Source: an uncultured virus (IMG/VR IMGVR_UViG_3300009503_000028)
Taxonomy: Duplodnaviria > Heunggongvirae > Uroviricota > Caudoviricetes
DNA length: 20,000 nt
Strand: one strand, 5' to 3'
Virus record (IMG/VR): IMGVR_UViG_3300009503_000028
Of this stretch, positions 1,335 to 20,000 are shown piece by piece; the first letter of the stretch is position 1; each line of letters starts with the position of its first letter. A model generated the notes under the pieces. That model was not told the origin of the DNA. It searched no databases and saw nothing but the letters and a program-made list of their open reading frames with translations. The position numbers and the translations under genes were made by a program.

Positions 1335-2857
1335 TGGATAAAGTAGATATTATAATGTTAAACTACAATGCATTAGAAATGACCAAGATGTGTATTTCTT
1401 CCCTTTTCAAGAACACAGATTATCCTTTCAATCTAATTCTTGTTGACAATGCTTCATCAGAACCTGGAACTAGAGAATTTCTAAACAGTCTAGCTAAAGA
1501 GCATAAAAACATGATAGTTCATTTCAATGAAGTCCCAGATTCAGGGTTTGCAGTTGGAAACAATATTGGTCTAAAGTATTCTACTAATGAATTGGTTCTC
1601 TTAGCTAACAACGATTTGTTGTTCTTTAGAAAAGACTGGTTACGGAAACTAGTTGAAGTAATGGAAAAAGATGAAAAGGTAGGATTAGTAGCTCCAAAAC
1701 TGATCTATCCAAATGATACTATTCAACATGCTGGAACTTACATTGTGCCATCATTTATACTTAACAAGCCTGAAAATACAATAGCTTGGGAACATATTGG
1801 AAGGTTCCAAGATAGTAAGAAGTATTCTTTTACAAGAGAAATGGGAGGAGTTACTTTTGCTTGTGTTTTATCAAGAAAGTCAGTTCTTGGAAAACTTGAT
1901 GAGTCCTACAAAATAGGGACTTATGAGGACAACCAGAAATGTATTGAAGTATTGGAGAAGGGCTATAAAATTGTCTATTGTGGTGAATCTGAAGTCTACC
2001 ACTATGAAAGTTACACTCAGCTTAGAAGACCTAGAGAACAGTTTGAACCTCAAAGAATAGAGAATTATAAACTATTCAATAGTAGAAAGGGAGAAATCCT
2101 CAGAAGAATGTGGGAAAAAGATTCAAAGTTGTTTGGATATTATGATCCAGACATTAAGATATCAGCTCTTGTGCTAGCAAGGGACTGTGAGAGAACTATA
2201 CCTTATTGTCTAGAATCTTTAAACTTCTTCGATGAAATCATAGTCGGATACACTAAAAGTTCAGACAAAACATATGAGAAGATCAAGGGAACAAATGCTA
2301 GAATTGTTGAAATGGATGAAATTGAAGATTTCAGTAAAGCAAGAGATGATTTAGGTAAAGAAGCATCTAATGAGTTTGTTTTCTATTTGGATTCTGATGA
2401 GATAATCCATCCAAGTGTCTATTTTGAACTTCACAGACATTTCTCATACTCTAAAAGTAATGTAACATTTCCTAGAGTTAATGTTTCAGTAACAAAATTA
2501 GCTTATACCAATAAATATCCAGATTTACAGACTAGAGCTATACACAAAACTGCCATGAAGTGGATCGGTAAAATTCATGAAAGATTGCAAGAAATAGGAG
2601 AAATAGTTCCATATGGTATAGTTCATTTTGGGAATTGTTTAGAGACTTGGAATTTAAAGAAATGGAAATATATTTCAGACAAGAATAAGAAGTTAGGATT
2701 TTATGGAGAAATGGAAGACAAGAACCTAAATAATGAAGAGAACTTTAGAAGAATAGTTGAAGCATATTCTTCTTATCCTCAAGAACCTATAGACATTTTT
2801 GGAAGTGAAATTATTCTTCCCAAGAAAGAGAAAATATTGGAAATATCAGGTAGATAG
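1331..2857 (+). CDS. Double-domain GT2 family glycosyltransferase
   Basis: Domain 1: IIMLNYN, LVDNAS, GFAVGNN, LLANND, YED. Domain 2: ISALVLARD, DFSKARD, YLDSDE (DxD), YPDLQTR, IHE. AGGAGG at 1321-1326, and the TTG start overlaps the upstream stop (TTGA). Confidence 0.9.
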   Translation: MMDKVDIIMLNYNALEMTKMCISSLFKNTDYPFNLILVDNASSEPGTREFLNSLAKEHKNMIVHFNEVPDSGFAVGNNIGLKYSTNELVLLANNDLLFFRKDWLRKLVEVMEKDEKVGLVAPKLIYPNDTIQHAGTYIVPSFILNKPENTIAWEHIGRFQDSKKYSFTREMGGVTFACVLSRKSVLGKLDESYKIGTYEDNQKCIEVLEKGYKIVYCGESEVYHYESYTQLRRPREQFEPQRIENYKLFNSRKGEILRRMWEKDSKLFGYYDPDIKISALVLARDCERTIPYCLESLNFFDEIIVGYTKSSDKTYEKIKGTNARIVEMDEIEDFSKARDDLGKEASNEFVFYLDSDEIIHPSVYFELHRHFSYSKSNVTFPRVNVSVTKLAYTNKYPDLQTRAIHKTAMKWIGKIHERLQEIGEIVPYGIVHFGNCLETWNLKKWKYISDKNKKLGFYGEMEDKNLNNEENFRRIVEAYSSYPQEPIDIFGSEIILPKKEKILEISGR

Positions 2858-2859
2858 GA

Positions 2860-3492
2860 ATGTACGAAGAGAATATTGAAGTTGCAAAAGACTTCCACAA
2901 GTTCCTACACATGAATTGGAGACTTCCTCTTTGGTTAGGGGTTATAGTTGAAAAGCTTCCTACTGAAATGTGGATTTACCAAGAACTACTTTATGATATT
3001 AGACCAACCAAGATAATAGAAACTGGATCGGGATATGGTGGCTCAGCTCTCTTCTTTGCTTCTATACTCGATCTTCTAGGTCAGGGTCAAGTTATATCTA
3101 TAGATGTCAAGGAAATTGAGAGACCTAAGCACCCCAGAATTAAGTACATTATAGGGAATTCAGTATCTGAAGAAGTCTTTCGGGAAGTCAGAAAAATGAT
3201 TAAAGAAGAAGATGTTGTCTTAGTTTCTTTGGATTCGGACCACTATTGGGAACATGTTCTTAGCGAACTGGAACTCTATTCTCAACTAGTTACAGTTGGA
3301 TCATATGTTGTAGTTGAAGATACGAATGAGTATGCTAGAGTTCCAATCCTGAAAAATGGAGAAAAAGAAGCAGGTCCTGAAAAAGCTGTGGAAGAATTTC
3401 TTAAGAAGCACCAAAACTTCATAGTTGATAGGTCTAGAGAAAAATTTTATATATCATGTTGTTTAAAAGGATATTTAAGGAGGATATTTTGA
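2860..3492 (+). CDS. CmcI-family (cephalosporin hydroxylase / rhamnosyl O-methyltransferase-like) SAM methyltransferase
   Basis: WLG...K.P.EMWIYQELL, IIETGSGYGGSALFFA, LDSDH..HVL.ELE.YS.LV..GSY.VVEDT and GP..AV.EFL motifs are typical of the CmcI family. Confidence 0.9.
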   Translation: MYEENIEVAKDFHKFLHMNWRLPLWLGVIVEKLPTEMWIYQELLYDIRPTKIIETGSGYGGSALFFASILDLLGQGQVISIDVKEIERPKHPRIKYIIGNSVSEEVFREVRKMIKEEDVVLVSLDSDHYWEHVLSELELYSQLVTVGSYVVVEDTNEYARVPILKNGEKEAGPEKAVEEFLKKHQNFIVDRSREKFYISCCLKGYLRRIF

Positions 3493-4460
3493 AATTGAAA
3501 AAGGTATTGATAACAGGAATTTGTGGTTTTGAAGGATCCAACATGGCTCTGCTCTGGAAAAACAAATACAATATAGCAGGGCTTGACATAACTTCAACAG
3601 CAAGGACTGAAGAACTCAAGGACATACCAATATATTATGTTGATATCAGAGAAAAAGAAGCAGTTGAGAAAGTTTTCAAATCTGCTAAACCAGATGTAAT
3701 AGTTCACTTAGCAGGTCAGGTATCTCACCTCAAATCTCAAGAAGACCCATACTACGACTTAGAATGCAATGTTAAAGGGATACTCAACATCTTAGAAACT
3801 GTTAGAAAGATAAATCCAAAATGTCAGGTACTGTATGCTAGTTCTAGATCAGTATATGGCTTTCCAAAATACTTGCCAATTGATGAAGAACACCCAACAG
3901 AACCAATAGATGCCTATGGGATAACTAAGAGGACAGCAGAACACTATTGTCAACTATATACATACCATTACGGCATTAACACTACATGTTTTAGACAAGC
4001 TAATCTCTTTGGTCCAAGACAGCAAGTATGGACTAATGTTTTCCAGATGGTTTCGTGGATTTTTAGATGTGTAGCTTTGGATGAAGAATTTACATTCTAT
4101 GGTGATGGTTCCCAAACTAGAGATTTTCTATATGTTGATGATGTAGTCAAAGCATATGAACTTGCAATAGAAAATCCAGAAAAAGCGTATGGTCAAATCT
4201 ACAACCTTGGAGGACATGAATACTGTTCTTGGAACCAAGTAATCAAATATGCTGAAGAGGTAACTGGAAACAAAGCTAAGGTAAAATATATACCTCATTC
4301 AGAATTGAGAAGCAAACTAGAAAATCCACACAGTTGGTTAAGCTATTCTAAGTACAAGAAAGCAACTGGATGGATGCCTGTAGTTTCTGTCAAAGAAGGT
4401 TTCAAAGAGATGTACAAATATTTTATATCTGAAAAGAAGATAGAAAAATATTTAAGTTGA
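3489..4460 (+). CDS. NAD-dependent nucleotide-sugar epimerase/dehydratase (extended SDR)
   Basis: TGICGFEGS (GxxGxxG), HLAG, SSRSVYG, YGITK (YxxxK), N.FGPRQ, GDGSQTRDF.YV.D. Start moved from the track's 3456 to TTG 3489 because AGGAGG lies at 3478-3483 and TTGA overlaps the upstream stop. Confidence 0.92.
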   Translation: MKLKKVLITGICGFEGSNMALLWKNKYNIAGLDITSTARTEELKDIPIYYVDIREKEAVEKVFKSAKPDVIVHLAGQVSHLKSQEDPYYDLECNVKGILNILETVRKINPKCQVLYASSRSVYGFPKYLPIDEEHPTEPIDAYGITKRTAEHYCQLYTYHYGINTTCFRQANLFGPRQQVWTNVFQMVSWIFRCVALDEEFTFYGDGSQTRDFLYVDDVVKAYELAIENPEKAYGQIYNLGGHEYCSWNQVIKYAEEVTGNKAKVKYIPHSELRSKLENPHSWLSYSKYKKATGWMPVVSVKEGFKEMYKYFISEKKIEKYLS

Positions 4461-4466
4461 AAATCT

Positions 4467-5030
4467 ATGTGCAATAATGCTATACTAAAGTGGATCGAGC
4501 AGAATGTTTCTAGGAAAGAGATAGAGAACAAAAGAGTACTAGAAATGGGAAGCAGGAATGTTAATGGAACAGTCAGACCTATTATAAACAAATTCAATCC
4601 TAGTGAATATATTGGAATAGATCTGTTACCTGGAGACTGTGTTGACATGATATTGCCAGCAGAAAAAGCTGTAGAACATTTTGGAAGAGAATCTTTTGAT
4701 GTAGTGGTGTCAACTGAAATGCTTGAGCATGTCTATTCTTGGAAGCAAGTTGTTTGGAACATGAAAGAAGTATTGAAGAAAGAAGGCACTTTATTTGTTA
4801 CTACTAGGTCTTATGGTTTTGGGTTGCATGACTTTCCAGCTGATTATTGGAGATTCGAAATAGAAGACTTTGAAGCTATTTTCAAAGATTTCAAAATCAT
4901 CAACCTTGAAAAAGATCCAGAAGCTCCTGGTGTGTTTCTAAAAGCTATTAAACCCTTAGACTGGAAGCCAATAGATCTATTTTCTACTCCTTTTTTAGTT
5001 TATTCAATCAGAGAAGGCAAAAGAATATAA
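4467..5030 (+). CDS. Class I SAM-dependent methyltransferase (Methyltransf_11-like, glycan-cluster type)
   Basis: VLEMGSRNVNG (motif I), YIGID, FDVVVSTEMLEHV, LKKEG.L and H.FP.DYWRF. Confidence 0.88.
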   Translation: MCNNAILKWIEQNVSRKEIENKRVLEMGSRNVNGTVRPIINKFNPSEYIGIDLLPGDCVDMILPAEKAVEHFGRESFDVVVSTEMLEHVYSWKQVVWNMKEVLKKEGTLFVTTRSYGFGLHDFPADYWRFEIEDFEAIFKDFKIINLEKDPEAPGVFLKAIKPLDWKPIDLFSTPFLVYSIREGKRI

Positions 5031-5635: not shown

Positions 5636-5899
5636 ATGAGTGAGTGCCAATCCAATAGATGTGAAATAGGTATCAATCCTTCAAGGAATTTCAAATATGT
5701 TTGGAGATGTTCTAATGACAAATGTAGGTTTGTTATTCCTATCAATGATGAAACTTATAGATTATTCTTTCCTAAGCTAAGATGCCCAAAATGTGCTAGT
5801 GGACTAATATGCTATCCAGCAGATTGGGTTTCAAAAAGAAGGGAATCTTTAAATAGAGAACAGTCGAAATCTTCTATAGGTGAAGTAACATGCCATTAA
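5636..5899 (+). CDS. Small Zn-ribbon-like Cys-rich protein
   Basis: CSNDKC...CPKC pair plus an N-terminal CQSNRC. Fits between neighbouring genes. Confidence 0.55.
   Translation: MSECQSNRCEIGINPSRNFKYVWRCSNDKCRFVIPINDETYRLFFPKLRCPKCASGLICYPADWVSKRRESLNREQSKSSIGEVTCH
5835..5883 (+). promoter_or_regulatory. Candidate archaeal promoter (purine-rich BRE + TATA) and Shine-Dalgarno site for the structural block
   Basis: Purine tract AAAGAAGGGAA, then TTTAAATA at 5848-5855, then GGTGA at 5879-5883, ending 6 nt before ATG 5890. Confidence 0.4.
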
Positions 5900-7862: not shown

Positions 7863-8876
7863 ATGGTTCAAATGCCTAGAAATCACGTCTTTCCACATTC
7901 GGGACCGAAAGGTTACTTTCTTTCTGAAGGCTTAGGTGCCTCTGTGTATAGAGGTTCTTTTGTCTTCGATCCAACAATGTACTTTACTTCAACTAGCACT
8001 ACTGTTAATGGTTTATCTGCTAGACTGCTATCTACGAGTCAAGGAACAACTTCTGCTTACAAAGATATAACCAATTACGATTATGAAATTGGAATTAGGG
8101 TTTGGAAGAGGAACTCAAGTGGTGTTGAAACGGAAATTACTGGTGGTTCTCCGGTTGCAGTTGCTGCCATTCCAGCATCAAGTGGCTACGTTAGTGGTTC
8201 ATGGAATTGTCCCCAGACAAGTTTAGCTTCAACGGATGCAGTTGTGGTTAGGGTTTACGCTTCAGCTGATGGTTCAACATGGAGTTTAGTGGATACATGG
8301 ATTACTCAGCAGCTGGGTGCTCAATCGCTTAATGCTTCAACTTGGACAGTTTACTACTACATTTATATTAGATCGTCACCTTACAAAGTTCTGTTCTATT
8401 TTGGAACAAGTACCTACAACAGTAGGATAGAAAATTTTGCATGGACTGCTCTAACTTCAGTTTCAAACACTCTTTCTTCAACTTATAGAATTTGGGCAAA
8501 GTTTTCTGGATATAGTGATTCGACTAATGTTGCCAAAATAGAAGCAATGGATTTCAATGACTACATTTCCAAACTTAAACTTGCTAGCATAATATGGTAC
8601 AAAAAGGAAGTCAGTCCTTCCTATGGAACTGTTGGATATACTACAGTAACCCTTGAAACTATCTTTTCAGACGACCAAGCTCCAGATCCCAGGGAAATTT
8701 CAGTAGTTTTCAATTTGAGATCTCAATTGGACTCAAGCACTACTCTTTCAACAACTGTTCCTGTCTATTCTTTGGCAACTAAAATTTTCAGAGCAATAGG
8801 AAGCATACCTATTCCAGAAGATGTCCCATTAAACTGTTATGACTTGCAAATTGAGGTGGACTATCTTGCAGCCTGA
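7863..8876 (+). CDS. Putative virion surface/fibre-associated protein
   Basis: Very S/T/V/Y-rich beta domain followed by a C-terminal Ig-like region. Shares a 16-aa motif with the downstream fibre-like protein. Confidence 0.6.
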   Translation: MVQMPRNHVFPHSGPKGYFLSEGLGASVYRGSFVFDPTMYFTSTSTTVNGLSARLLSTSQGTTSAYKDITNYDYEIGIRVWKRNSSGVETEITGGSPVAVAAIPASSGYVSGSWNCPQTSLASTDAVVVRVYASADGSTWSLVDTWITQQLGAQSLNASTWTVYYYIYIRSSPYKVLFYFGTSTYNSRIENFAWTALTSVSNTLSSTYRIWAKFSGYSDSTNVAKIEAMDFNDYISKLKLASIIWYKKEVSPSYGTVGYTTVTLETIFSDDQAPDPREISVVFNLRSQLDSSTTLSTTVPVYSLATKIFRAIGSIPIPEDVPLNCYDLQIEVDYLAA

Positions 8877-11800
8877 CTGGGACAATGCCTATTGGTACTA
8901 TTTAGACCTGCATGGAACAACTGTCCCTTTTGACCTACCTTCTGGAATATATTTATTTGATACTCGCATGGATTTTGGAGGGAATTTATCTCTTTCTTTA
9001 AATCCTTATCAATCTATGACTTATCGTTTCGCTTGTAAAGTTGGTAGAGTCTATGAAATCTATAAAGATTCCTTCAATGTCGATATTCCTTCCTACTGGT
9101 CTTATTTTGGATATCCAGCATCTGTGTCTGTTTATGTTTTGAATGACAACAAGAACACTGTAAGTAACTTTGGAACTTTCTCTGCCTATACTTGTGGAAC
9201 TGTCCCTTCAGCTCTCACTTTAAATACTCATGGTTATTTTAAAGCAGAATATACTCTTTACAACAATACTTCTGGTACAATTAAGACAACTATTTCTCTG
9301 TCAGAGTTTGGAGTATATCTCCCATGTAGACATAGAAAAGTCTTCGGATATAGCAAATATACTCGACTAGATGGATTTCATGGTGATATAATTTGTGGTC
9401 TCCCTCAAAACGGAACATTCCAGACTTTTCAAATTGTTCCGGCAGTTGCAGAAGGTAAACCAATCCCAGGAACTATGCATTGGTATCTTTATACTTCTGA
9501 GGGTGGAAATTGGCAATTGAGAAGAGATGGTACCTTAGAAGTAGGAAGATATCAAACAAGGTTTGTTTCTCTTGATCCACCTTTAGAAGTTCAAAATGCA
9601 ACTATTAAATTGACTCAAACAGGAGTTGACTATCTCACAGAATATACTTATGACCGAACCCCTAAGATGTGTTGGGCTTGGAATCAGAAACCAATAGACA
9701 ACTTTACTCCAGGAGATTTTTCAGCTAAAATTAACGATATTTGGTGGGATGCTGGTGAGCATCCTCAGAATGTTCTGTTTTGGGGCAATGCTACTTTTCC
9801 TCCATTTTCTCGCTTGAAAGGTTTAGAAGCTTGTATAAACAGAGATCCTTCTCTTTACAAACGATATTTTAGAATCAAGATCTATTCTTCCAACACTATA
9901 CTCTATTTAGGTCCATATGATTCTGGTAGCCTTGGAATACCTTTCTATAGTGGTCCCTCCGGAGAAGCAGCATATAAGTGGTTCAGGTTTCCTGTCACGA
10001 TAGAAACACCGAGTATCTCTTATGAGATTGAACAATCTTCTGATACAATTTCTTGGGATATAAATACTGGAGGCTACAATTTAAGGTATGATTATACCAA
10101 ACGACCTTTCATTGGTGATGGAAACATTAGGTTTTTGCTAGAACCGACTGAATCTTTTGACATCTCTCAATTTCTAAGTGTAACTATACCAGTTTCAAAC
10201 TATGCTGATGCCATTTCTCCCATGTCTGTTAATCCTTTGTCTTTTTCTCAAGATATTTCCAACAAGTTAATGGCACTCACAAGATACTATGGTAACCAAA
10301 TAACATATTTTACACGTTATAACACTGTAGTTGGGTCTTCGATTTTTGTTCACACATTTACAAATAGACTTCCAATTTCAACACTTACAACAATTTCTAT
10401 CTATGTTGGAGATGCTGTCAACTATCACACTATTGCTATTTCTCCTCTACCAATAAATTGGTCCAATATTACTTGGCATACTTTTCAGGTTTCAGCTGCA
10501 ACTTTTGTAGATGTTCCTGTAACTGAAGCATTTACTATCTATCCTGGTTCTTTGTATGCTATTCTCTGGAAAACAGGGGGTTCTATAACTGTTCTTCAAC
10601 CGTATGTCTCTAGAAGGAGTCCTGACTCTTGGTTTGATTTACAACAAAAAGGCTACCTTACAGACACTTCCTCAACTATTTCAACTAACTATAACCTTGC
10701 TTGGGCAATCTATTCTAGTGATGGACAAAATTCTTATTCAGATGGTATGGTATATTCTAGGTGTTTAACTGGACTAGCTTGTTGGATTGGCTCTGTTCAA
10801 GTTGAAAAATATATAATAGAGAATCCACCAGAAATGATATTCAACTATGTTGCTATTTATACTTCCAAGGCAGGTTCACCAACAGGGTCTTTAGTTCTCA
10901 ATTTTGTAGCAAACAGTTCAACATTATATTCTTGGAGTATTCCACCAGAAAGTGTTCCCAATTTTCCAACTTACCAGGATGTAGTTCTATATACTGGAGA
11001 CTTGCATTTGCCTCCAAATTCGACAGTAGTTATTGAAGCGTCAGCTACTATCGGGACAGATGCTAACAATTTCTATGAAATAGGAGTAGTCAGAACGGAT
11101 TCGGCTACAAAAAATGATTTAACATTTGGTGGTATTAAAGCTTACAGACAAAGCCCTCCCAACACATTTTTGACTGATGACCACTCTTTCAGGTTTGCAA
11201 GTAAATATTATCTAAATGAAACAGAAATGCAAAATAAAATGATAACAGAAATACAAGAGTTTAAGGATTCCTCCAATCTTCTCAAGATCAAGGCAAAAGA
11301 ATTCCAAGACTATCCGTCTTTCTTGAACATTGGAGCTAAAATATACTCTCATTATTGGGAAAACATTTGTGTTCTTTTCTTAGTGAAATTAGTCCAAAAG
11401 TTTCTTGAGAAAGTTAACAGAGTTCTGAACAAACTTGAAGGTTTTTCACTTTTTGGTTTCAAAGTTAAAGAGAGAGTAAGTAGATTTCTAAGCCCAACCT
11501 ATTTGTCTAGAATGCTTAAAGAACGTTCAGCTAGTCTTTTGAGTGTCCTGAAAGTTTTTGTTCTTAGATGGTGTAGTTTCGATTATGTTGTCAAGCAGCT
11601 AAGACTTAGGTTTTCTTCTCTAAACTACGCTGTTAGAGGAGCATCACGTCAAATTTCAGTTCTAAAATCTAACCTTTTGAACTTAGTTCAGAATCTTAGT
11701 AGTCTCAAATTTACGTTAAAGAACTTAACTAAAAAGACATTCATAGTTATGTATCCACTCCGAAACATTGTTCGGGGCACAATTCTGTCGTTGCATAAAC

Positions 11801-13176
11801 TATTAATCTTAGTCAAAACTAGTTTAACAACTCTAAACAATTTGAAAATATTAGTAGTAAACTTTTCCAAGATACTGTTCGGTCTCAAAGTTTGGAAGTC
11901 AAACATTTTATCTGGATTTTCAAGCATTAGAAGTTTTCTGATGAAATTCTTAACCGTCAAGTCTAAACTGTTAAATCTTGTTTCCAATATTGATACATTC
12001 CGTTATGCCACTAGAATTGTTAAAAGTAAAGGAATAGTTCTTCAACATTTGATTCGAATTAGGATTGAAAATGTAATTCTAACATTGCATAAACTTTCTG
12101 GAATAGTGAAAAATCTCCTAAAAACAGTGCATACTTTGAGAGTTTTAACACTCCAATGGTTCTCAAGTAATTTTATCATTAAAATTTTGAAACAAAACAT
12201 TGTGAATGGTATTTTTAAACTTCAAAGTTTCGTTAGTAAATTCTTAGGCTTTAGATTTAAAATATTGAAGTTAGTTTCAAGAACAGAAACATCCTTATTC
12301 GTTTTGAAAAATGTTCTTTCAAAATTGATAGGTTTAACTCATTCACTGATATCCATAGTAAGAAATTCAGCTTCTATAATATACAAATTAGCTGGGATAG
12401 TTGCGAATCTCTTGAAAAGTGTTAACACTCTAAAATCTCTAACTTTAGAATGGCTTTCATCTAATTTCAACATCAAACTTTTGAAAGAAAGATTTCTATT
12501 TGCTGTTTCGCTTCTTCGAAGCTCAATTTCTAAACTATTGGTTTCAACATTCAAAATTTCTAAGCTTGCTGCTAGAATCTTTACTCCAGTATATTCATTC
12601 AAACTTTTACGGGAAAGAATCCTAGACTTGAGATTTTTGCTAAGAGAAGCAGTTTCAAAAACTGTTTCTTCCCTGTTCAATTTAGGAGGAATAGTTGTTA
12701 GAATTCTAAGTGGAAATTATCTAGCCAGAAACTTGAGAACTATTTCTATTTCCTTTAAACATCTTTTAAGAACAATAAGGACTGAAAGTCTTAATATAAT
12801 TCACTCTCTTAGGGTGAAAATCGAGGCGATACTTAGAACTCTCTACACATTAAGATCTAACGTTCTAAATACTTTCAATTTCTTGTATTCAAGTGGTCTA
12901 GTCTTGATAAGACATCTGAGTACTCTTTATCGAATACCTTGTGGAATAGTAGCCAAAGTTCTAGCAATCTCTTACAACACAGCTAGAGCATATCTTGAGA
13001 TAGCCTTTTCAGCTATTAGATCCAAAGCTATCTATGTCTTAAGAAAAGAGAAAGGGATCTTTGTGTCTGTCAAAACTCGTATTAAATATCTAGAGAAACC
13101 CAAAGACGTTTTCAAGATTATCAAAGAAAAAGCTGAATACATTTTGAAAGATTTGGTCAAGAAAAGGAGAACTTAA
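8866..13176 (+). CDS. Large fibre/adhesin-like virion protein (~1440 aa): N-terminal beta domains plus C-terminal basic 14-aa repeat region
   Basis: The N-terminal ~800 aa are Y/S/T/G-rich and carbohydrate-binding-like. The C-terminal part is a K/R/L/F/S-rich periodic repeat. GAGGTGG at 8853-8859 precedes the in-frame TTG 8866 (the track start is 8839). Confidence 0.7.
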   Translation: MQPDWDNAYWYYLDLHGTTVPFDLPSGIYLFDTRMDFGGNLSLSLNPYQSMTYRFACKVGRVYEIYKDSFNVDIPSYWSYFGYPASVSVYVLNDNKNTVSNFGTFSAYTCGTVPSALTLNTHGYFKAEYTLYNNTSGTIKTTISLSEFGVYLPCRHRKVFGYSKYTRLDGFHGDIICGLPQNGTFQTFQIVPAVAEGKPIPGTMHWYLYTSEGGNWQLRRDGTLEVGRYQTRFVSLDPPLEVQNATIKLTQTGVDYLTEYTYDRTPKMCWAWNQKPIDNFTPGDFSAKINDIWWDAGEHPQNVLFWGNATFPPFSRLKGLEACINRDPSLYKRYFRIKIYSSNTILYLGPYDSGSLGIPFYSGPSGEAAYKWFRFPVTIETPSISYEIEQSSDTISWDINTGGYNLRYDYTKRPFIGDGNIRFLLEPTESFDISQFLSVTIPVSNYADAISPMSVNPLSFSQDISNKLMALTRYYGNQITYFTRYNTVVGSSIFVHTFTNRLPISTLTTISIYVGDAVNYHTIAISPLPINWSNITWHTFQVSAATFVDVPVTEAFTIYPGSLYAILWKTGGSITVLQPYVSRRSPDSWFDLQQKGYLTDTSSTISTNYNLAWAIYSSDGQNSYSDGMVYSRCLTGLACWIGSVQVEKYIIENPPEMIFNYVAIYTSKAGSPTGSLVLNFVANSSTLYSWSIPPESVPNFPTYQDVVLYTGDLHLPPNSTVVIEASATIGTDANNFYEIGVVRTDSATKNDLTFGGIKAYRQSPPNTFLTDDHSFRFASKYYLNETEMQNKMITEIQEFKDSSNLLKIKAKEFQDYPSFLNIGAKIYSHYWENICVLFLVKLVQKFLEKVNRVLNKLEGFSLFGFKVKERVSRFLSPTYLSRMLKERSASLLSVLKVFVLRWCSFDYVVKQLRLRFSSLNYAVRGASRQISVLKSNLLNLVQNLSSLKFTLKNLTKKTFIVMYPLRNIVRGTILSLHKLLILVKTSLTTLNNLKILVVNFSKILFGLKVWKSNILSGFSSIRSFLMKFLTVKSKLLNLVSNIDTFRYATRIVKSKGIVLQHLIRIRIENVILTLHKLSGIVKNLLKTVHTLRVLTLQWFSSNFIIKILKQNIVNGIFKLQSFVSKFLGFRFKILKLVSRTETSLFVLKNVLSKLIGLTHSLISIVRNSASIIYKLAGIVANLLKSVNTLKSLTLEWLSSNFNIKLLKERFLFAVSLLRSSISKLLVSTFKISKLAARIFTPVYSFKLLRERILDLRFLLREAVSKTVSSLFNLGGIVVRILSGNYLARNLRTISISFKHLLRTIRTESLNIIHSLRVKIEAILRTLYTLRSNVLNTFNFLYSSGLVLIRHLSTLYRIPCGIVAKVLAISYNTARAYLEIAFSAIRSKAIYVLRKEKGIFVSVKTRIKYLEKPKDVFKIIKEKAEYILKDLVKKRRT
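11458..12990 (+). repeat. Degenerate coding tandem repeat: 42-nt (14-aa) units with a 294-nt (98-aa) higher-order period
   Basis: An aromatic or His residue recurs at most 14-codon steps from 11458 to 12928. HKL/HKL/YKL/FNL units start at 11794, 12088, 12382 and 12676, exactly 294 nt apart. TTGCATAAACT occurs at 11791 and 12085. Confidence 0.9.
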
Positions 13177-13226: not shown

Positions 13227-13568
13227 TTGTCTCAAATGTATGCTATTCCACCAGAAACAGAACTAGTTGAGTCAGATATCAAATATCTAACATTCTATAT
13301 AATGGAGAAAGACCCGATATCTGGTTCTCTAAGTTATTATGATTTAAGTGGAGCATCTTCTATAGTTCTAAGACTTAGAAAATATAATGAAACAAGCAAT
13401 GCATTAGAAGTTACTATGGTAGTAACAAACCCAACTTTAGGATTGTGCAGAGTTTTAGCTACAATTCCTCCAGCTGGAAGGTATGAATCTGAAATAGAAG
13501 TATACGAAGCAGAAGAGCACAATACTTGGAAGGGTCCTGTTCTGAAAGTTAGATCTCAGTTGGGATAG
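13227..13568 (+). CDS. BppU N-terminal-like Ig-fold virion/baseplate protein
   Basis: LTFYI.E.D...YDLSGA.SI.L.L...V.NPT.G.C.V....AG.YESEIEV pattern resembles baseplate upper protein N-terminal domains. AGGTGA ribosome site before the TTG start. Confidence 0.6.
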   Translation: MSQMYAIPPETELVESDIKYLTFYIMEKDPISGSLSYYDLSGASSIVLRLRKYNETSNALEVTMVVTNPTLGLCRVLATIPPAGRYESEIEVYEAEEHNTWKGPVLKVRSQLG

Positions 13569-13570
13569 AA

Positions 13571-16500
13571 ATGAAGATTAGAATACTTGGGACAAAGGGC
13601 GAAATAACTGAAAAAACTCATGGAGTCCAAAAACATTCTGGAGTTTTAATAGATAATTTATTGTTTGATTGTGGGGAGAGAGAATACCTTGCTCTTAAAC
13701 CAGATGCAATCTTTGTCTCTCACTTGCACCCTGACCATTGGGCTAAAGGGATTGAAACTGATATTCCAGTCTATAGTATTGAGAAGCCAGAAGGAAGTAA
13801 GAATTGGCAAAAGTTGAAGAAATTGCAGAAACTTACTATAGATACTCTTAAGATAACTCCTATTCCAACAACTCATAGCAAGAAAGTAAAGTCATGTGCT
13901 TTTCTAATTGAGAATTCAAAGAGGATACTATATACTGGAGATCTAATGTGGGTCAATAAGAAATACTGGGGCATGATTAGAAACTTAGATCTAGTTATTA
14001 CTGAAGCTAGTAGTTTAGATAGGAATCTAATTAGAAGAGATAAGAAGACAGGAGAGATCTATGGTCACACTTCTTTGAAGAGATTAGTTCAATTGTTTAA
14101 AGAACTTGGAGCTAAGAAGATACTCATTCTGCACTATGGTTCTTGGGCAGTAGATGACTTTAAGAAGGCAAAAGAACAGATTAGAGAATTAGGAGCTATA
14201 CCAGCAGAGGATGGATATAGTATGGAATTAGAACTTAAACCAGAAGATGTTGAACCTGTAACTCCTAAAGTTTTTGCTGAACCACAATATGGTCTAATAG
14301 TAGTAGAACCTCATGGTAAAATGATATGGAATGGAACTAAGAAAGCTATACTCAAATCTAGAAAGTTTGAATCACACATTGGAGAACCACTGTATCTGAT
14401 AGCTGATAGATTGTGTTATGGGATTATTACTCTGAAATCTCCTTCTGAAATAGATGAAAAGACATTCAAAGAAACATTTGATAAACACAAAGTTTCAGAA
14501 GAAGATAGAAAAGTATGGTCTAAGAAAGAACCAGAGTGGGGAAAGTTTCCTCTCTACATGTATGAGTTTGATTTTGAACCTTTCAAGAAACCTAAACCAA
14601 TAAGATTCAAAACAACTGGTCCTCAAGTATTTATCTCCAAAGAAAACTTTGAATTTCTTGAAGTATCAAATATGGATCCAACTGAATTGGAGTATTTCCA
14701 TTCTCTATATCATACCTATAATGAAGAGCTAGGTGATGTATGGTGTGAATTACATTTTGAGCTATCTACTCAAATGATTGCAAAAGGTCTATACCATTCA
14801 TATGTTTCTGGTCCTTGTGATAGAGTTCTTGATATTAATGAACTAATTAAAGAAGCAACTAAGGACTGGGTTAACCAATATATTAAGAACTTAAAGAAAT
14901 ATACTAGAGCTCAAGTAGGAGATGATTTTAGAATAGTTCTAGGTTGGTATTCTACAATCAAAGAAGGAAAGAAACTTACAAAGCATACAAATGTTGGAGA
15001 CATTCCAATCACTGAAGAAGACTGCAAGAAACTAGCAGTAGCTATAGTTAGAGAACTAATAGATAGAGGAGCTAGATTCAATAGACCAGAGACATATAAG
15101 AAGTATGCTAGAGAACTATTTGAATATGTAGTTAAAGAGATAGGAGAGAAGAACATACCTTGGAAGGAAGAAGCAGAACTAGCACTTCCAAAGAACCTAG
15201 AAGTTACAGACATTGATGTTCCTTTTGTCAATAAGCTATCTGATAAAGATCTTGAAGAACTATGGAAATGGTTACATGATAAATGGAAGAAAGAACATCC
15301 AAATGGTGAGACACCTGAAAACTTTGTGAATGCCAACATCTTCGTGCAAACAGAGAGATGGAAGAGAGGAATAATAGATTATGATTATGAAGACAAAGAT
15401 GCACTAGACAAAGTTGCTCGCTTTTCTTGGCAAGAATATGGTGGAGTTACTCCTCTTGAAGAGCCAGAAGGTGAAGAGATAAAACTTGAAGATGTTGTTA
15501 AAGCAATAAGTGGAACTGGAATAATACCAATAAAAGGACAACCATATGCAGCTTATCTGATTGGAAGGATAGTTAATGAAGGAAAGATTCCAAAGAACCA
15601 TGATATAGATATTCTGTTCCGTCAGAATCCAGATCCAAGACTAGTATATTCTATTCGTAATAGTCTACCAGATTGGTTGTCTAAGAGAGTCCATGTTGTA
15701 TTTGACTATGCTGGACCAGGTGTAGGACTGAGTCTTCCTGTATATGGCTATGCACTTAATCCACTCCCTAAAGAACTGATGACCACAGGATTTGGTCCGT
15801 TTAGAGAATTAGAAGCACCAAAGCTTGGAAAGTATATGATCGGAATCAAACCAAAATCAGGGTGGGGCAAACATGAGTTTTGGGATCCAAAAGAAGCATG
15901 GGAGAAGTGGGCTAGCCAATACATTAAAGATGGGATATGGGTTGAAGAAAAGGTAGATGGAAGAAGACACCAGATTCATATTATGGAAAACAATTCTATC
16001 AAGATGTTTACTGAAGATACCCAGAGAGATAGAGCTATTGTCTTTCCAGAGATAGTCAAAGAGTTCCAGTCTTTGCATCTAGAGAAGAGCATTATAGATG
16101 GTGAAATCTTAGCTTTTATTCCAACTGGAAAGGTTGAACCTAAGAATGCTAGAGCTAAAAGAGAACTATGGGAATTGATGCCAAGAGAAGATACTGCAGC
16201 TATTACAGCAGCAAAGTCTCTTTCTGAAGATTTTAGAAAGAAACTAGTTCTAGTTATCTATGACATTATGATGTACAAAGGAAAGGATCTAACTAATGCA
16301 CCATACTCTGAACGTAGGAAGATATACACTTCAATTATACCTAAAGATCTGCAATATATTGATACTGTAAGAGGAGATCTAGCTAGAACAATGGAACAAT
16401 TCTTTAATCTAGTCAAGAAATATAGTTCAGTAAATGGAAGTGAAGGTGTAGTATGCAAGTCAAGCAAGTTACTATATCCAGTCAAATGGTCTGGCGAGAA

Positions 16501-19500
16501 CAGACCAGAAACTATGTGCAAAATCAAAAATCTAAAGGAGATAGATGTCAAAGTTATAGGTGTCAAACAGAAGAAAGAGAAAGAAACTGGTAGACCAATT
16601 CCAACATATATCTACCAATGTGCTATAGCTTTGCCAAAAGATAAAGTAAAAGAATGGTATCCAGAAGATATCTATGAGGAAAATGGAAAGATATATGCAT
16701 TCATTGGAGAATCCTATGGTACCAAAGTAAAATGTAAAGTTGGAGACATAATAACTGTAATGCCAATCAGAGTTAGATTCTACCAGAAGAATGGTAAGAC
16801 TAGAGTAACATGGATGTTTCCACTCTTCAAAGAGAAGAAACCAGAAAAGAAAGAGCCAGATCCTTTAGATGTAGCTGAGAAATTAGCAAAATTAGGAACA
16901 AGACCAGCTCTTGAAGAAGAACTGGAAGATATAATTAAAATATATCTTGAACCATGTCCATTCTATAAGGACTGGAATGTTTGTCCTCTAAGGAAGAGGT
17001 TTGGTGTTAGAAGAGCAATACAGAATCTAGCTCTCATTGAGGAAGAGGTTCTCAAGTATCCAGTAATGTGTCCATTAGCTAGGACATTCAAGTGTCCATA
17101 TGTCAAAGATTACTACTATGGTTTCATAGGAGTCAAGTACCATCCAGAGCTATCAGAATACTTTGAGATGGTAAACTTAGACAAGTATCCTAGATATATT
17201 GTCCAGAAACTACAGGGAAAATATATGGAGATGCCTAAAGGAGAACATGACTTCGTAATGGAATCTCATATTCTGACTAAAGAATTTGTTCCTAAAGAAA
17301 AGAAGATACCTAAGACTGGAAGTCAACATTTGGACTGGAGAATGGCAGTAGATGGATATCTAGAAGGATGGTCTATAGTTGGAGGTTCAGTAGATAAACT
17401 AATAACTCCAAAGAGACTATTAGATAATATAGGAAAAGGATTTAGGACAGAAGAGAAGGCTAGACAACCTTGCATAGCAGAAGACACTTTTGTAATCAAG
17501 AATCAAACTTTATGCCAAGCTAAAGAGATAAAGGTTGGAGATAAAGTTCTAACTGCTGATGGAACATTCAAACCAGTTCTTGAAATAGATAGAGTTTTCA
17601 AGCCAGAACAATATCTAGTTCGACCAGAATTTGGATTACCTTTACAAGTTGATGGTGAACATCCGTTCTTAGTTAATGCCATTACATGGCAGGAGCAAAG
17701 TAGATTAAGCAAGAGACAGAGAAGAGAGCTTTATACATTGAGACCTGTTTGGAAACCTGCTTCTATGCTTAAGAAAAATGACATTCTTCTATTTCCAAAA
17801 TTGAAAATAGATTCAGTTTCTTTTGTCGGGAGTAAAGAAGAAGGAATGTTGAGTGGCTATTATCTTGGAGATGGCAATTTATTCTTAGGTGGTAAAAGAA
17901 AGAAAAGTGGAGAATATGCAACTAAGTATTGTCGTTTAGCTTTCAATAGCAAAAATGTGACCCTTATAACTAAGTACCAAGAAGTCTTGTCAAGACTTAA
18001 AATCAGATACTGGATCAGAGAAAGAAAAGATAATGTAACTGAATTAGTGTTTACTGTGAAAAAAGACATGAAAATATTTCCTAAACCTAAAGAAATACCA
18101 ATTAACTTTGTCAATGCTAATCAAGAATTCTTAAAAGGACTAATAAAAGGATTGGTTGATTCAGATGGCTATATTGACAAGAGTGGTTATATACACTTTA
18201 TTAATTCCAATCTCAGTCTAATTAATGGGCTTGTTTTAATTCTCCATAGATTCGGTGTAGTTCCATCTCTGAGGTACAGAAACAATCTCAACTATTCTCA
18301 TTCAGAGTTTCAAGGTAAAATTGCTGAATTGATTTGGTCAGCAGAAAAGCATAAGCAATACTTCGACTATGGGTATTATTATGGTTTCAGAGTTAAAGAT
18401 ATCAGAAAAGTAACACCTAAACCTTTGGTAAATATTGTGACTGAAAATCACACATTCTGTTTGCCATATTGTGCTACACACAATACTGTTTGGTTATTCA
18501 AAGATAAACCAATAGCTAAAGATCCAGATTCTCTCAAGCCTGGAGATCCAGAACCAGCTATTTATGATGTTGTTGTTGGAGAAGGAGAACCTAGAGGAAA
18601 GATGTTTGTAATGACAAGAGGAAAAGCAGTGTTTGGTGTCCAGAAGCCTTGGTTCCATGAGTACTTCTTAAAAGATGATAGATACTTCAAAGATTGGACT
18701 AGAATAGTTGTTAGAGGAATTAGAGCACAAAAGATAGATCCAACAACTAAGGAACCAATAAAGGGAGAATATGAGACTTTATGGAGAAGTATGATTCCTT
18801 TGGATCAAATGCCTTATGCTATTAGTAAGAGAGCTAGAGAGAAGAACTGGAAGCCACCTAAAGACAACAAGTATCCTTTCCCTAAGGATTGGGCTGCCAA
18901 GAAGTTTCCAGAAGAGTTCAAAGCATATGAGGAATACTTGAAAACTTTGAAACTTTCTGAAGAGTTGAATAAAGTTAAGTTTACACTTTCACAGCACTCG
19001 TGGAAAGGACCTGAACATATCAGAAAATTGGCAATTAGACAGTGGTATCTATTCATTGATGACAAAGGGAAGGGACCTGTTAGAACATTTAGACTTGAAA
19101 GTGTTCCTCCCTTTGATGTCCAGATTCTAGCATGGGATGAAGGTAGAGATGACAGAAAGTATCTAGACTGGAGTGGAAAGACTAAACCAATGAGTAGGTT
19201 CAATCCAAACAAGGAACTATATGGTGAAATGGTTATACTACAAAAAGGAACAGTAGATTATAGTACTACTAAAGAGGATGGAAGAGAAGTGATAACACTA
19301 AAGTTTGGTGAAGGACAGTTTCTATCCAAAGAGTGGAAACTAGAACAGGAAGAAGCTGAAAGTGATGCTTATACACTGTACAAAGTAGAGAAAGAAAGCT
19401 TAGAGAAAGAATATGAATTCGTATATCATAAACACTGTGTCCAATCAAAAGATAAGTGCCATCATGATATTAGGATTAAGATGGATCACTATCTTGATGA

Positions 19501-20000
19501 ATTCAATTTGTATGGAGATATTAGAGAACTCAAACCTGGAGAAGAGGTAAATGCTAGGAGAAAGACATGTCATGAGCCTGAGAAGTGGTTCCTCAAAGAA
19601 GGAACAGATATTGAGAGACCATTGGGAGATATTATGACTTGGGTTACAGTAATAGATCATGGAAAAGCTAAGATAATAGAAAATACTCCAGATTTTCTGA
19701 ATCTAATACTAAGTAGCAAAGATTTCAACAATGTACACTTCATAGCTAAGAGGACAGATGGGAAATGGATATTCAGAAGAGAGATAGAAACAAGAGGACT
19801 TTCAACTGGAGATCCACTTCATGGTAAACCATACTCTCCATTCATTGTTAAGAAGAAAACAACATGGAACTATTTCAGAGTCTATATCTATGATCCTAAA
19901 GAATTCACTAGAAGTGAGCCTTTAGAGAAAGTTAAGAAATATCTTCCAGACTTGAAGATACCAGAAGGAGTCAAAGTATATGTTGGGTTGTATCCAGTTC
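13571..20000 (+). CDS. Giant multidomain nucleic-acid repair polyprotein (MBL hydrolase - ASCH - helical repeats - NTase-like - ATP-dependent ligase/OB - Cys4 - 3x LigD-PE-like, with intein), 3' partial
   Basis: Hand translation from ATG 13571 is open for 2143 codons to the window end. Motifs: HLHPDH 13721-13738; KVDG 15950-15961; IIDGE 16091-16105; YDIM from 16259; EGVVCK 16442-16459; KIK 16520-16528; HLDWR 17327-17341; HHDIR 19460-19474. Absent from the ORF track because it has no stop codon. Confidence 0.93.
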   Translation, partial: MKIRILGTKGEITEKTHGVQKHSGVLIDNLLFDCGEREYLALKPDAIFVSHLHPDHWAKGIETDIPVYSIEKPEGSKNWQKLKKLQKLTIDTLKITPIPTTHSKKVKSCAFLIENSKRILYTGDLMWVNKKYWGMIRNLDLVITEASSLDRNLIRRDKKTGEIYGHTSLKRLVQLFKELGAKKILILHYGSWAVDDFKKAKEQIRELGAIPAEDGYSMELELKPEDVEPVTPKVFAEPQYGLIVVEPHGKMIWNGTKKAILKSRKFESHIGEPLYLIADRLCYGIITLKSPSEIDEKTFKETFDKHKVSEEDRKVWSKKEPEWGKFPLYMYEFDFEPFKKPKPIRFKTTGPQVFISKENFEFLEVSNMDPTELEYFHSLYHTYNEELGDVWCELHFELSTQMIAKGLYHSYVSGPCDRVLDINELIKEATKDWVNQYIKNLKKYTRAQVGDDFRIVLGWYSTIKEGKKLTKHTNVGDIPITEEDCKKLAVAIVRELIDRGARFNRPETYKKYARELFEYVVKEIGEKNIPWKEEAELALPKNLEVTDIDVPFVNKLSDKDLEELWKWLHDKWKKEHPNGETPENFVNANIFVQTERWKRGIIDYDYEDKDALDKVARFSWQEYGGVTPLEEPEGEEIKLEDVVKAISGTGIIPIKGQPYAAYLIGRIVNEGKIPKNHDIDILFRQNPDPRLVYSIRNSLPDWLSKRVHVVFDYAGPGVGLSLPVYGYALNPLPKELMTTGFGPFRELEAPKLGKYMIGIKPKSGWGKHEFWDPKEAWEKWASQYIKDGIWVEEKVDGRRHQIHIMENNSIKMFTEDTQRDRAIVFPEIVKEFQSLHLEKSIIDGEILAFIPTGKVEPKNARAKRELWELMPREDTAAITAAKSLSEDFRKKLVLVIYDIMMYKGKDLTNAPYSERRKIYTSIIPKDLQYIDTVRGDLARTMEQFFNLVKKYSSVNGSEGVVCKSSKLLYPVKWSGENRPETMCKIKNLKEIDVKVIGVKQKKEKETGRPIPTYIYQCAIALPKDKVKEWYPEDIYEENGKIYAFIGESYGTKVKCKVGDIITVMPIRVRFYQKNGKTRVTWMFPLFKEKKPEKKEPDPLDVAEKLAKLGTRPALEEELEDIIKIYLEPCPFYKDWNVCPLRKRFGVRRAIQNLALIEEEVLKYPVMCPLARTFKCPYVKDYYYGFIGVKYHPELSEYFEMVNLDKYPRYIVQKLQGKYMEMPKGEHDFVMESHILTKEFVPKEKKIPKTGSQHLDWRMAVDGYLEGWSIVGGSVDKLITPKRLLDNIGKGFRTEEKARQPCIAEDTFVIKNQTLCQAKEIKVGDKVLTADGTFKPVLEIDRVFKPEQYLVRPEFGLPLQVDGEHPFLVNAITWQEQSRLSKRQRRELYTLRPVWKPASMLKKNDILLFPKLKIDSVSFVGSKEEGMLSGYYLGDGNLFLGGKRKKSGEYATKYCRLAFNSKNVTLITKYQEVLSRLKIRYWIRERKDNVTELVFTVKKDMKIFPKPKEIPINFVNANQEFLKGLIKGLVDSDGYIDKSGYIHFINSNLSLINGLVLILHRFGVVPSLRYRNNLNYSHSEFQGKIAELIWSAEKHKQYFDYGYYYGFRVKDIRKVTPKPLVNIVTENHTFCLPYCATHNTVWLFKDKPIAKDPDSLKPGDPEPAIYDVVVGEGEPRGKMFVMTRGKAVFGVQKPWFHEYFLKDDRYFKDWTRIVVRGIRAQKIDPTTKEPIKGEYETLWRSMIPLDQMPYAISKRAREKNWKPPKDNKYPFPKDWAAKKFPEEFKAYEEYLKTLKLSEELNKVKFTLSQHSWKGPEHIRKLAIRQWYLFIDDKGKGPVRTFRLESVPPFDVQILAWDEGRDDRKYLDWSGKTKPMSRFNPNKELYGEMVILQKGTVDYSTTKEDGREVITLKFGEGQFLSKEWKLEQEEAESDAYTLYKVEKESLEKEYEFVYHKHCVQSKDKCHHDIRIKMDHYLDEFNLYGDIRELKPGEEVNARRKTCHEPEKWFLKEGTDIERPLGDIMTWVTVIDHGKAKIIENTPDFLNLILSSKDFNNVHFIAKRTDGKWIFRREIETRGLSTGDPLHGKPYSPFIVKKKTTWNYFRVYIYDPKEFTRSEPLEKVKKYLPDLKIPEGVKVYVGLYPV
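17471..18484 (+). mobile_element. Intein with LAGLIDADG homing endonuclease (338 aa)
   Basis: Starts CIAEDTFV (block A). Block B is VDGEHPFL. LAGLIDADG motifs are LSGYYLGDG (17849-17875) and LIKGLVDSDG (18140-18169). Ends ATHN followed by Thr+1 at 18485. Confidence 0.95.

Follow-up and report, generated by a model that had tools for sequence, protein, structure and literature searches.

Bacterial LigD combines a phosphoesterase (PE), an ATP-dependent ligase, and an AEP polymerase, and it acts with Ku in nonhomologous end joining (NHEJ). The healing and sealing of RNA is carried out by T4 Pnkp with Rnl1 or Rnl2 and by bacterial Pnkp/Hen1, systems that need a 5′-kinase and RNA-ligase-type enzymes. 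A precedent for the viral use of NHEJ is reportedly offered by phages (Pitcher et al. 2006). Here we analyze a 20,000-nucleotide stretch of DNA from an uncultured tailed virus (IMG/VR IMGVR_UViG_3300009503_000028; Caudoviricetes), called the window below, which carries a giant open reading frame (ORF) at positions 13571–19999 of the + strand. As in LigD, a PE fold with its His/His/Asp triad and Arg, an ATP-dependent ligase, and a putative nucleotide-adding domain are found in one polypeptide that would heal and then seal. We put at about 60% the probability that the product is a single, intein-matured enzyme of an uncultivated tailed virus that heals 3′-blocked DNA breaks and then seals them, and that is maybe carried in the virion.

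The PE domain of bacterial LigD and its heal-then-seal logic are set out in the available text of PMC8656161. The giant protein differs from LigD in having its PE domain in triplicate, with one degenerate copy, and in its nucleotide adder, a putative minimal Pol-beta-type nucleotidyltransferase (NTase) in place of the AEP primase-polymerase. Its ligase scores best as an archaeal/eukaryotic type and falls far under the cut-offs for NHEJ ligases, and metallo-β-lactamase (MBL), ASCH, helical, Cys4, and C-terminal domains are added. The gene also contains an intein and lies in a viral structural-gene context, and a Pfam search for Ku in four related virus records, three of them complete, found none, whereas the control Ku of B. 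subtilis was found. The stand-alone archaeal PE proteins of Candidatus Korarchaeum (CkoPE, 3P4H), Methanosarcina (MbaPE, 3P43), and Methanocella (5DMP) are single domains of ~120–170 aa from cellular NHEJ sets. In contrast, the giant protein embeds three tandem copies in ~1850 aa, and the second-segment His position is not conserved in it in a remote alignment. With T4 Pnkp and Rnl1/Rnl2 it shares a virus-encoded healing activity paired with sealing, but it has no kinase motif and its ligase is of the DNA type.

In phages, huge multi-enzyme proteins encoded among virion genes are also known, as polyvalent proteins and as cargo fused to MuF (Iyer et al. 2017, PMC5512222). In the available text of that study, the repertoire is offensive or anti-restriction and centered on bacterial elements; the words ASCH and lactamase are absent from this text, and "ligase" occurs three times, one instance being RNA ligases. 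The giant protein is instead a set for repair, encoded by viruses that probably infect archaea, and a Pfam scan detected in it none of the hub domains given in that text. The polyvalent-protein concept is the nearest framework, yet, as far as this text goes, it does not include the domain set seen here.

Among 50,697 GenBank phage records, the only true relative is the "ATP-dependent DNA ligase" of ANMV-1 (AJP62006.1, from KP703175; 866 aa), which is 25% identical over query residues 655–1942; the other 55 matching records hit the intein alone. Nidhogg viruses, archaeal viruses from hydrothermal sediment, are reported to encode a "ligD with TFIIS-like zinc finger" (10.1101/2021.07.29.454249), and this wording, by description only, fits the ligase-Cys4 part of the giant protein. 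Both genes are annotated as plain ligases, and the available texts describe neither inteins nor PE, MBL, ASCH, or NTase domains for them. The initial annotation of the window knew of no characterized protein with this combination, and none was found in the literature (supplements aside) or in the GenBank phage records. The giant protein would be a LigD-like heal-and-seal enzyme or a virion-associated multi-enzyme protein, built from different parts.

Extent of the Giant ORF

The giant ORF starts with an ATG and runs for 2143 codons without a stop to the 3′ end of the window, where it is still open. GC content is ~35% and even along the window (range 0.31–0.39), GC skew is positive across the giant gene, and all large ORFs of the window lie on the + strand, as do all of the features given below. 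An open frame of 2143 codons at ~35% GC rules out a chance frame. From end to end, the ORF aligns collinearly with five orthologs of 1852–1880 aa (49–82% identity; alignment A1) and with a complete 2191-codon ORF (L005:4330–10905) on a contig that is 83% identical to the window. Neither an in-frame stop nor an assembly chimera was seen, and the frame is a single one, as first proposed.

The orthologs run ~45 residues past the point where the window ends, which leaves no space for a further large domain. The frame does continue beyond the window, as had been suggested, by this short stretch only. The full-length protein is predicted to have about 2188 aa, or about 1850 aa after excision of the intein. 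A prohead protease, portal, MuF, or capsid domain had been thought possible at the C terminus, but the orthologs end without one. A Pfam scan also found no protease domain anywhere in the ORF, and the sole predicted processing event is intein excision. The protein is therefore a modular fusion and not a protease-cleaved polyprotein, the label it had been given.

DNA Ligase Core and Cys4 Module

The ATP-dependent DNA ligase core, consisting of a nucleotidyltransferase domain and an OB fold, is encoded at positions 15902–16855 (residues ~778–1095). It matches Pfam DNA_ligase_A_M (PF01068) with an E value of 2.7e-21 and 76.6 bits against a cut-off of 26.2, and NCBIfam dnl1 with 4.3e-20. A profile of the region matches the archaeal ligase 4eq5 (2.6e-9) as well as 2cfm and 3gde, over profile positions 793–1109 and through the OB domain; the best Protein Data Bank (PDB) matches are archaeal and human Lig1-type enzymes. 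Motif I (KVDGRR, with Lys-794), motif III (DGEI), motif IV (EGVVCK), motif V (KIK), and a motif VI-like RVR are present. The assignment of a ligase with an OB fold made at first sight is thus borne out by the Pfam match, by motifs I, III, IV, and V, and by the alignment of the OB fold to archaeal ligases. The scores for NHEJ ligases are far lower than their cut-offs, at 56.8 bits against 227.75 for NHEJ_ligase_lig and 61 against 373 for DNA ligase D. Pfam found no primase or AEP family in the giant protein at E ≤ 1, and the putative minimal Pol-beta-type NTase occupies the slot that separates the helical region from the ligase.

The ligase is followed by a Cys4 module (positions 16943–17125), in which Cys-1129, Cys-1138, Cys-1167, and Cys-1175 are invariant in the aligned orthologs, in agreement with the initial annotation. 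Where relatives carry a split gene, this module is the final part of the N-terminal gene.

Three PE Domains and a Conserved C-terminal Domain

The first PE domain is encoded in two parts. The N-terminal part (positions 17222–17470) contains the motifs FVMESH (His-1233) and SQHLDWR (His-1253, Asp-1255, and Arg-1257) and ends in KARQP; the C-terminal part (positions 18485–18805, residues 1639 to ~1745) includes QKPWFHEYF. The second PE-like domain (positions 18947–19396, residues ~1793–1942) is without the His/His/Asp triad, and the third (positions 19397–19801, residues ~1943–2077) contains His-1955, His-1964, Asp-1966, and Arg-1968.

A C-terminal profile of 13 sequences (A2) matches the archaeal PE structures 3p4h (1e-5) and 3p43 (4.8e-3) at the third domain. 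The intein-free C-terminal portion of the 83%-identical ortholog (L005:8926–10902) was modeled with a 72-sequence alignment (A4) at a pLDDT of 87.1, and the top Foldseek matches of this model are 3p4h, 3p43, 3n9b, 5dmp, and 2lj6. Foldseek tables list each chain once; the other two PE domains were compared as profiles cut from A4. With hhalign, the first and third domains align at 97.0% (E 9.5e-11, 106 columns), the second and third at 98.4% (E 5.6e-15, 123 columns), and the first and second at 68.6%. The first two domains are tied to the PE fold, an eight-stranded β-barrel, by hhalign only, and the first also by Pfam LigD_N in relatives, where it matches the first PE domain of the C-terminal ORF of L004 with 1.6e-8 (35.1 bits against a cut-off of 31.1), L003 with 2.8e-6, P0063 with 1.5e-13, and P0108 with 1.4e-6. 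The three PE-like domains recognized initially are recovered in this way.

The PE domain of P. aeruginosa LigD binds manganese with the triad His-42, His-48, and Asp-50, to which Arg-52 is added, and phosphate with His-84 and Tyr-88, according to the available text of PMC8656161. The triad and the Arg are nearly invariant in the first PE domain of the family (His in 45/46, His in 45/46, Asp in 44/46, and Arg in 45/46 sequences) and well conserved in the third (56/60, 58/60, 56/60, and 55/60, respectively). The second domain lacks all of these residues and is, given the missing triad, probably non-catalytic. In the remote profile and hhalign alignments, the position of His-84 is a Gln in the first domain (45/46) and variable in the third, and that of Tyr-88 is a Trp in both (46/46 and 59/60). 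Two relatives (L001:5947–9078 and L002:13543–16326) carry an additional Cys-containing insertion of ~30–40 aa (CVxxFCNEWK...) in the first PE domain, at A2 columns ~590–635. It immediately precedes the ARQP motif, which is the site of the intein in the window.

A conserved C-terminal domain (positions 19802–19999) is cut by the window end. In full it has ~111 aa and is modeled with a pLDDT of ~90, and no fold or family match was found for it. It was considered as a hidden prohead protease and rejected, with an hhalign probability of 0.1% against the XkdF domains of five fusion proteins. An XkdF-type ORF was likewise found neither in the window nor in 26 retrieved loci, from which L026 and L027 were left out as copies of L009 and L017.

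An Intein Interrupts the First PE Domain

The two parts of the first PE domain are separated by an intein of 338 aa with a LAGLIDADG homing endonuclease (positions 17471–18484, residues 1301–1638), which the initial domain list had overlooked. The intein starts with Cys-1301 as Cys1 (CIAEDTF), contains a block B (GEHPF) and two LAGLIDADG motifs, and ends in a block F/G of the form ...ENHTFCLPYCATHN, with His-1637 and Asn-1638 followed by Thr-1639 at position +1. Pfam LAGLIDADG_3 matches two stretches of it (1.7e-13) and Hint_2 matches weakly. The insertion is precisely missing from all five aligned orthologs and from L005, which read KARQP|KVWLF where the window reads KARQP|C...HN|TVWLF. Cys1, the block-B His, the His-Asn end, Thr+1, the LAGLIDADG pair, and the precise absence in orthologs together identify a class 1 intein. 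A phmmer search of it against PDB sequences gave no match at E ≤ 0.01.

The intein lies one residue past the Gln that aligns with His-84 in the first PE domain and so falls in that domain's second active-site segment. The same insertion site is used in P0047, P0092, and P0065. The intein of L002 is 30% identical to that of the window and occupies another site. Intein sites in relatives fall in a motif of the helical region (L005, verified), in the NTase (L007), in the ligase (L001, L023, L016, L024, and L025), and at several PE sites. By domain-break mapping, 16/162 family proteins have internal gaps of ≥120 aa in the PE module, at ~8 positions. The family is a marked intein hot spot. More LAGLIDADG inteins were observed in the anaerobic ribonucleotide reductase NrdD and in a 1023-aa LonB-type AAA+ protease that adjoins the portal gene (L009:1168–3897; L016:2436–5507). 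These viruses are unusually intein-rich.

N-terminal Domains

The N terminus of the giant protein (positions 13571–14236, residues 1–222) is an MBL-fold di-metal phosphodiesterase domain. It matches Pfam Lactamase_B_2 (7.3e-13, 49 bits against a cut-off of 27) and PHROG 392, "metal-dependent hydrolase" (3.4e-17). The HxHxDH motif and later ligands, His-51, His-53, Asp-55, His-56, His-102, Asp-124, His-166, and His-188, are invariant in 6/6 sequences. Every short motif listed in the initial annotation is present in the translation, and the MBL assignment agrees with these matches. The domain is closest to RNase Z and to PhnP-type (cyclic) phosphodiesterases.

A reading as an anti-defense effector, or polyvalent protein, would have the MBL domain degrade cyclic-nucleotide signals, the NTase and ASCH domains modify host factors, and the ligase and PE domains mend restriction or CRISPR cuts. 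Precomputed Pfam lists of homologs do include PF23023 (Anti-Pycsar_Apyc1), relatives carry Dam-methylase fusions, and multi-domain proteins in a virion gene context are a hallmark of polyvalent proteins in the available text of PMC5512222. However, in the local Pfam scan PF23023, whose family cut-off is 50 bits, gave no match at E ≤ 1 in the giant protein, at E ≤ 0.1 in three orthologs, or in the L003 record, and in control genomes it picks ordinary MBL proteins below that cut-off. The MBL domain was accordingly dropped as a candidate member of Apyc1. No known anti-defense family turned up, PADLOC and anti-defense libraries being outside the search. This role seems quite unlikely next to the break repair that we favor.

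The MBL domain is followed by an ASCH domain, a PUA-like β-barrel (positions 14276–14656, residues ~236–362). A 16-sequence profile of residues 223–760 (A3) matches the whole chains of PDB entries 2dp9 (1.4e-4) and 1wk2 (1.9e-4). An AlphaFold model of the same residues has a pLDDT of 77 overall and ~90 within the ASCH domain, and this domain matches 2dp9 (Foldseek E 1.6e-5, TM score 0.72), a Zymomonas ASCH protein, YqfB, and TRIP4. The ASCH-like assignment made from sequence motifs is therefore upheld by both profile and model. Its matches also include an RNA-base amidohydrolase and an ASCH protein of the ribonuclease type.

These two domains raise the possibility that the protein is an RNA repair kit, which heals and seals host or viral RNAs (e.g. 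tRNAs) cut by anticodon nucleases or other ribonucleases. The kinship of the MBL domain to RNase Z and PhnP and the RNA-related ASCH matches would suit this role, as would weak Pfam matches to RNA_ligase and mRNA_cap_enzyme in some homologs; the RNA_ligase match in the ortholog P0002 reaches 6e-3 only. Such RNases leave a 5′-OH, but no Walker-A motif of a P-loop kinase was found in any of six orthologs, although the helical region could conceivably hold a novel kinase fold. For the ligase core, the match as a DNA ligase is far stronger, its OB fold aligns to archaeal DNA ligases, and the fusions of relatives to UDG, Dam methylase, PAPS reductase, and a further DNA ligase are DNA-centered. On these grounds DNA is favored as the substrate, and an RNA repair kit is unlikely.

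A conserved, mostly helical region (positions 14657–15445, residues ~363–625) comes next, for which Pfam, a PDB profile search, and a structure search gave no family or fold match. In the ESM Atlas it scores 0.90 and the C-terminal domain 0.87, without a usable family for either. Three helical repeats had been proposed here; weak similarity links a single segment pair (87.8% over 46 columns), and the other pairs, at 50% and 0.7%, do not support them. The region keeps the invariant motifs GDDxRI..WY (positions 14918–14953) and FNRPExYK..ARELFE. The first of these motifs reads GDDFRIVLGWYS in the window (residues 450–461). In L005, the closest relative, an intein lies exactly inside it (L005:5695–6714; GDDWRI|C...VHN|CLGWYS). 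Since inteins favor active sites, the helical region may be one more domain with a catalytic or DNA-binding role.

Between this region and the ligase is a minimal NTase-like domain from the Pol-beta superfamily (positions 15458–15772, residues ~630–734). Relative to the MNT signature (G[SR]-x(9–13)-DxD and a third acidic residue), Gly-665, Asp-678, Asp-680, and Asp-712 are conserved. The small NTase-like domain seen initially is recovered here as a putative Pol-beta-type one.

Relatives of the Giant Protein

Scanning viral contigs with the single protein gave nothing, and the relatives were found by an alignment-based scan. They comprise four IMG/VR contigs of 107–128 kb, 21 metagenome loci, and two contigs of metagenome-assembled genomes (MAGs). 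Three of the IMG/VR relatives are complete genomes of 107–110 kb with direct terminal repeats. The family is large: among 1.84 billion representatives, a profile search with E value limits of 1e-3, 1e-10, and 1e-30 returned 1061, 691, and 201 members, respectively. The distant relatives L001, L002, L004, L016, and L024 have two adjacent overlapping ORFs in place of one, with the break between the Cys4 module and the first PE domain, and L004, L013, and L012 are without the MBL domain or without both MBL and ASCH.

Fusion partners were counted in a Pfam scan of 40 long members, chosen from 150 listed matches. DNA ligase was found in 32/40, a C-terminal Peptidase_S78_2 prohead protease in 5/40, a D12 (Dam-type) methylase and LigD_N in 2/40 each, and Phage_Mu_F, UDG, and PAPS reductase in 1/40 each. 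Some relatives have further DNA ligase domains added.

Genomic Context

The giant gene is preceded by a small ORF of 113 aa (positions 13227–13568, + strand), which has no Pfam match itself and is weakly BppU_N-like. By tblastn it matches L003:25200–25385 (E 7.8e-6), and that ORF of L003 matches Pfam BppU_N with 4.7e-6. BppU_N-type small proteins come after the fiber gene in relatives. Upstream of it lies a fiber-like ORF of 1445 aa (positions 8839–13176, + strand) without a family match, the C-terminal third of which resembles the giant DUF2341 proteins of relatives. As the likeness is confined to this third, the product is probably a rapidly evolving fiber or adhesin. The ORFs between positions 5032 and 13568 gave no Pfam match except for a weak zinc-finger DUF4379 (6.5e-4) in ORF 5636–5899.

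Five genes at positions 75–5030 encode two glycosyltransferases (GT4 and GT2), a CmcI-type O-methyltransferase, an NAD epimerase/dehydratase, and a SAM methyltransferase. Homologs 34% identical to the GT4 enzyme occur in L016 and L020, two loci of related viruses, and the relatives L004 and L016 have glycosyltransferases and epimerases near structural genes. This glycan-synthesis cluster may reflect glycosylation of the virion or of the host surface. The initial annotation placed the giant frame directly after virion genes; this holds insofar as the fiber-like ORF and the small, weakly BppU_N-like ORF precede it, with the glycan-synthesis cluster before them.

We scanned 116 neighboring proteins from seven long loci, and each of the seven has at least one hallmark virus gene, be it for an HK97-type capsid, a tail tube, a terminase, a Mu-type portal, or BppU_N. 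L009 and L012 share the gene order of the window, with the major head protein 2–2.5 kb downstream of the giant gene. A conserved ORF of ~490 aa lies between these two genes (L005:11064–12530; L009:16386–17858). It has only weak C2H2 zinc-finger-like matches and a match to PHROG 6283, and could be a scaffold or head-assembly protein. In distant relatives, a small DUF2153 gene ("conserved in archaea") adjoins the ligase and PE genes in varying order (L003:15306–15626, L004:14916–15251, L016:9665–9994, and L023:17927–18256); it was not seen in the window, L005, or L009. The 113-aa ORF was considered as its counterpart and rejected, as tblastn matches BppU_N-like ORFs instead.

Some homologs carry labels of MAG proteins from Ignisphaera, Thermoprotei, Aenigmatarchaeota, and Chloroflexi, as might be expected of a cellular archaeal gene whose viral context is a binning artifact or a prophage remnant. 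However, these labels are scattered over unrelated phyla, as mis-binned viral contigs would give, and a search of 185,579 species genomes gave no more than two loci, each on a short MAG contig. The genomes of three relatives are complete, with terminal repeats, and structural virus genes flank the giant gene in 7/7 long loci. A cellular origin is very improbable, and the description of the gene as virus-encoded stands.

The genomes also bear on whether the protein is a replication enzyme, that is, a ligase for Okazaki fragments or replication at large whose other domains serve primer removal and processing, without a link to the virion. In two of the four related genomes, the ligase of the giant gene is the only ATP-dependent ligase. 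LigD-type PE trims 3′-end ribonucleotides, as stated in the available text of PMC8656161, and the Nidhogg "ligD with zinc finger" is counted among replication genes in that of 10.1101/2021.07.29.454249. The other two genomes, however, have a second, ordinary-sized ATP-dependent ligase frame of 547–582 aa far from the giant gene (G001:C1:77695–78195 and G002:C1:32733–33224; frames of 547 and 582 aa), which argues against a simply replicative role. All long loci place the giant gene among fiber, baseplate, and head genes and not among replication genes, and fusions to a prohead protease or MuF occur in distant relatives. A replication enzyme appears unlikely as well, compared with an enzyme for the repair of DNA breaks.

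Proposed Function

The break-repair enzyme that we favor would act in three steps. In the first, the intein would excise itself and join the halves of the first PE domain to give the ~1850-aa protein, as the intact splicing motifs suggest. In the second, the two catalytically equipped PE domains, perhaps together with the MBL domain, would strip blocking groups from 3′ ends, which could be a 3′-phosphate, a ribonucleotide, or damaged termini. The Pol-beta-type NTase may extend the 3′ end with nucleotides, the ASCH domain, helical region, and Cys4 module would hold the nucleic acid, and the ATP-dependent ligase would seal the 3′-OH/5′-phosphate nick through Lys-794. The domain set, in which independent methods recovered every enzymatic domain, and the conserved catalytic residues point to this work on broken DNA. 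With no kinase and no Ku partner, the enzyme would suit breaks with a 5′-phosphate and a dirty 3′ end, such as may arise from heat, abasic-site cleavage, and some nucleases. The host is probably a thermophilic archaeon.

In the third step, the capsid may take up the protein, and its action on the viral genome would fall at or before entry. Loading is suggested, more weakly than the repair steps, by the position of the gene between fiber and head genes and by the distant relatives fused to a prohead protease (5/40) or MuF (1/40), fusions that suggest delivery with the DNA as for polyvalent proteins. A packaged break-repair machine that, at or before entry and without recourse to host Ku and LigD, mends heat or nuclease damage in the virion DNA is a tentative and rather doubtful extension of the repair model. 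Circularization of the genome by ligation, another role considered at first, is less needed in view of the terminal repeats on the genomes of the relatives.

Several points weigh against the repair enzyme as proposed. The two related genomes with no other ATP-dependent ligase make a replicative role possible, and the ASCH and RNase Z/PhnP-like MBL domains fit RNA as well as DNA. In the remote alignments, the positions of His-84 and Tyr-88 differ from those of the PE enzymes studied so far, so that the activity may differ from that of the LigD PE. No protease or MuF fusion occurs in the lineage of the window itself, and the fetched loci are without an XkdF-type protease; packaging is extrapolated from distant relatives. 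The activities of the giant protein are predictions from its sequence.

If the proposal is correct, viruses of hot environments would carry their own Ku-independent, LigD-like repair enzyme for a damage-prone genome. The family would be a natural experiment in the convergent assembly of heal-and-seal enzymes and a source of a candidate thermostable enzyme with several activities for DNA-end processing and ligation. The intein hot spot would mark functionally critical sites in an otherwise unstudied branch of PE domains. With the giant protein, the idea that repair enzymes serve as virion cargo would also become testable, and, should the machine indeed be packaged, the protein would represent a virion-borne system of genome maintenance, a class of packaged cargo without earlier description.

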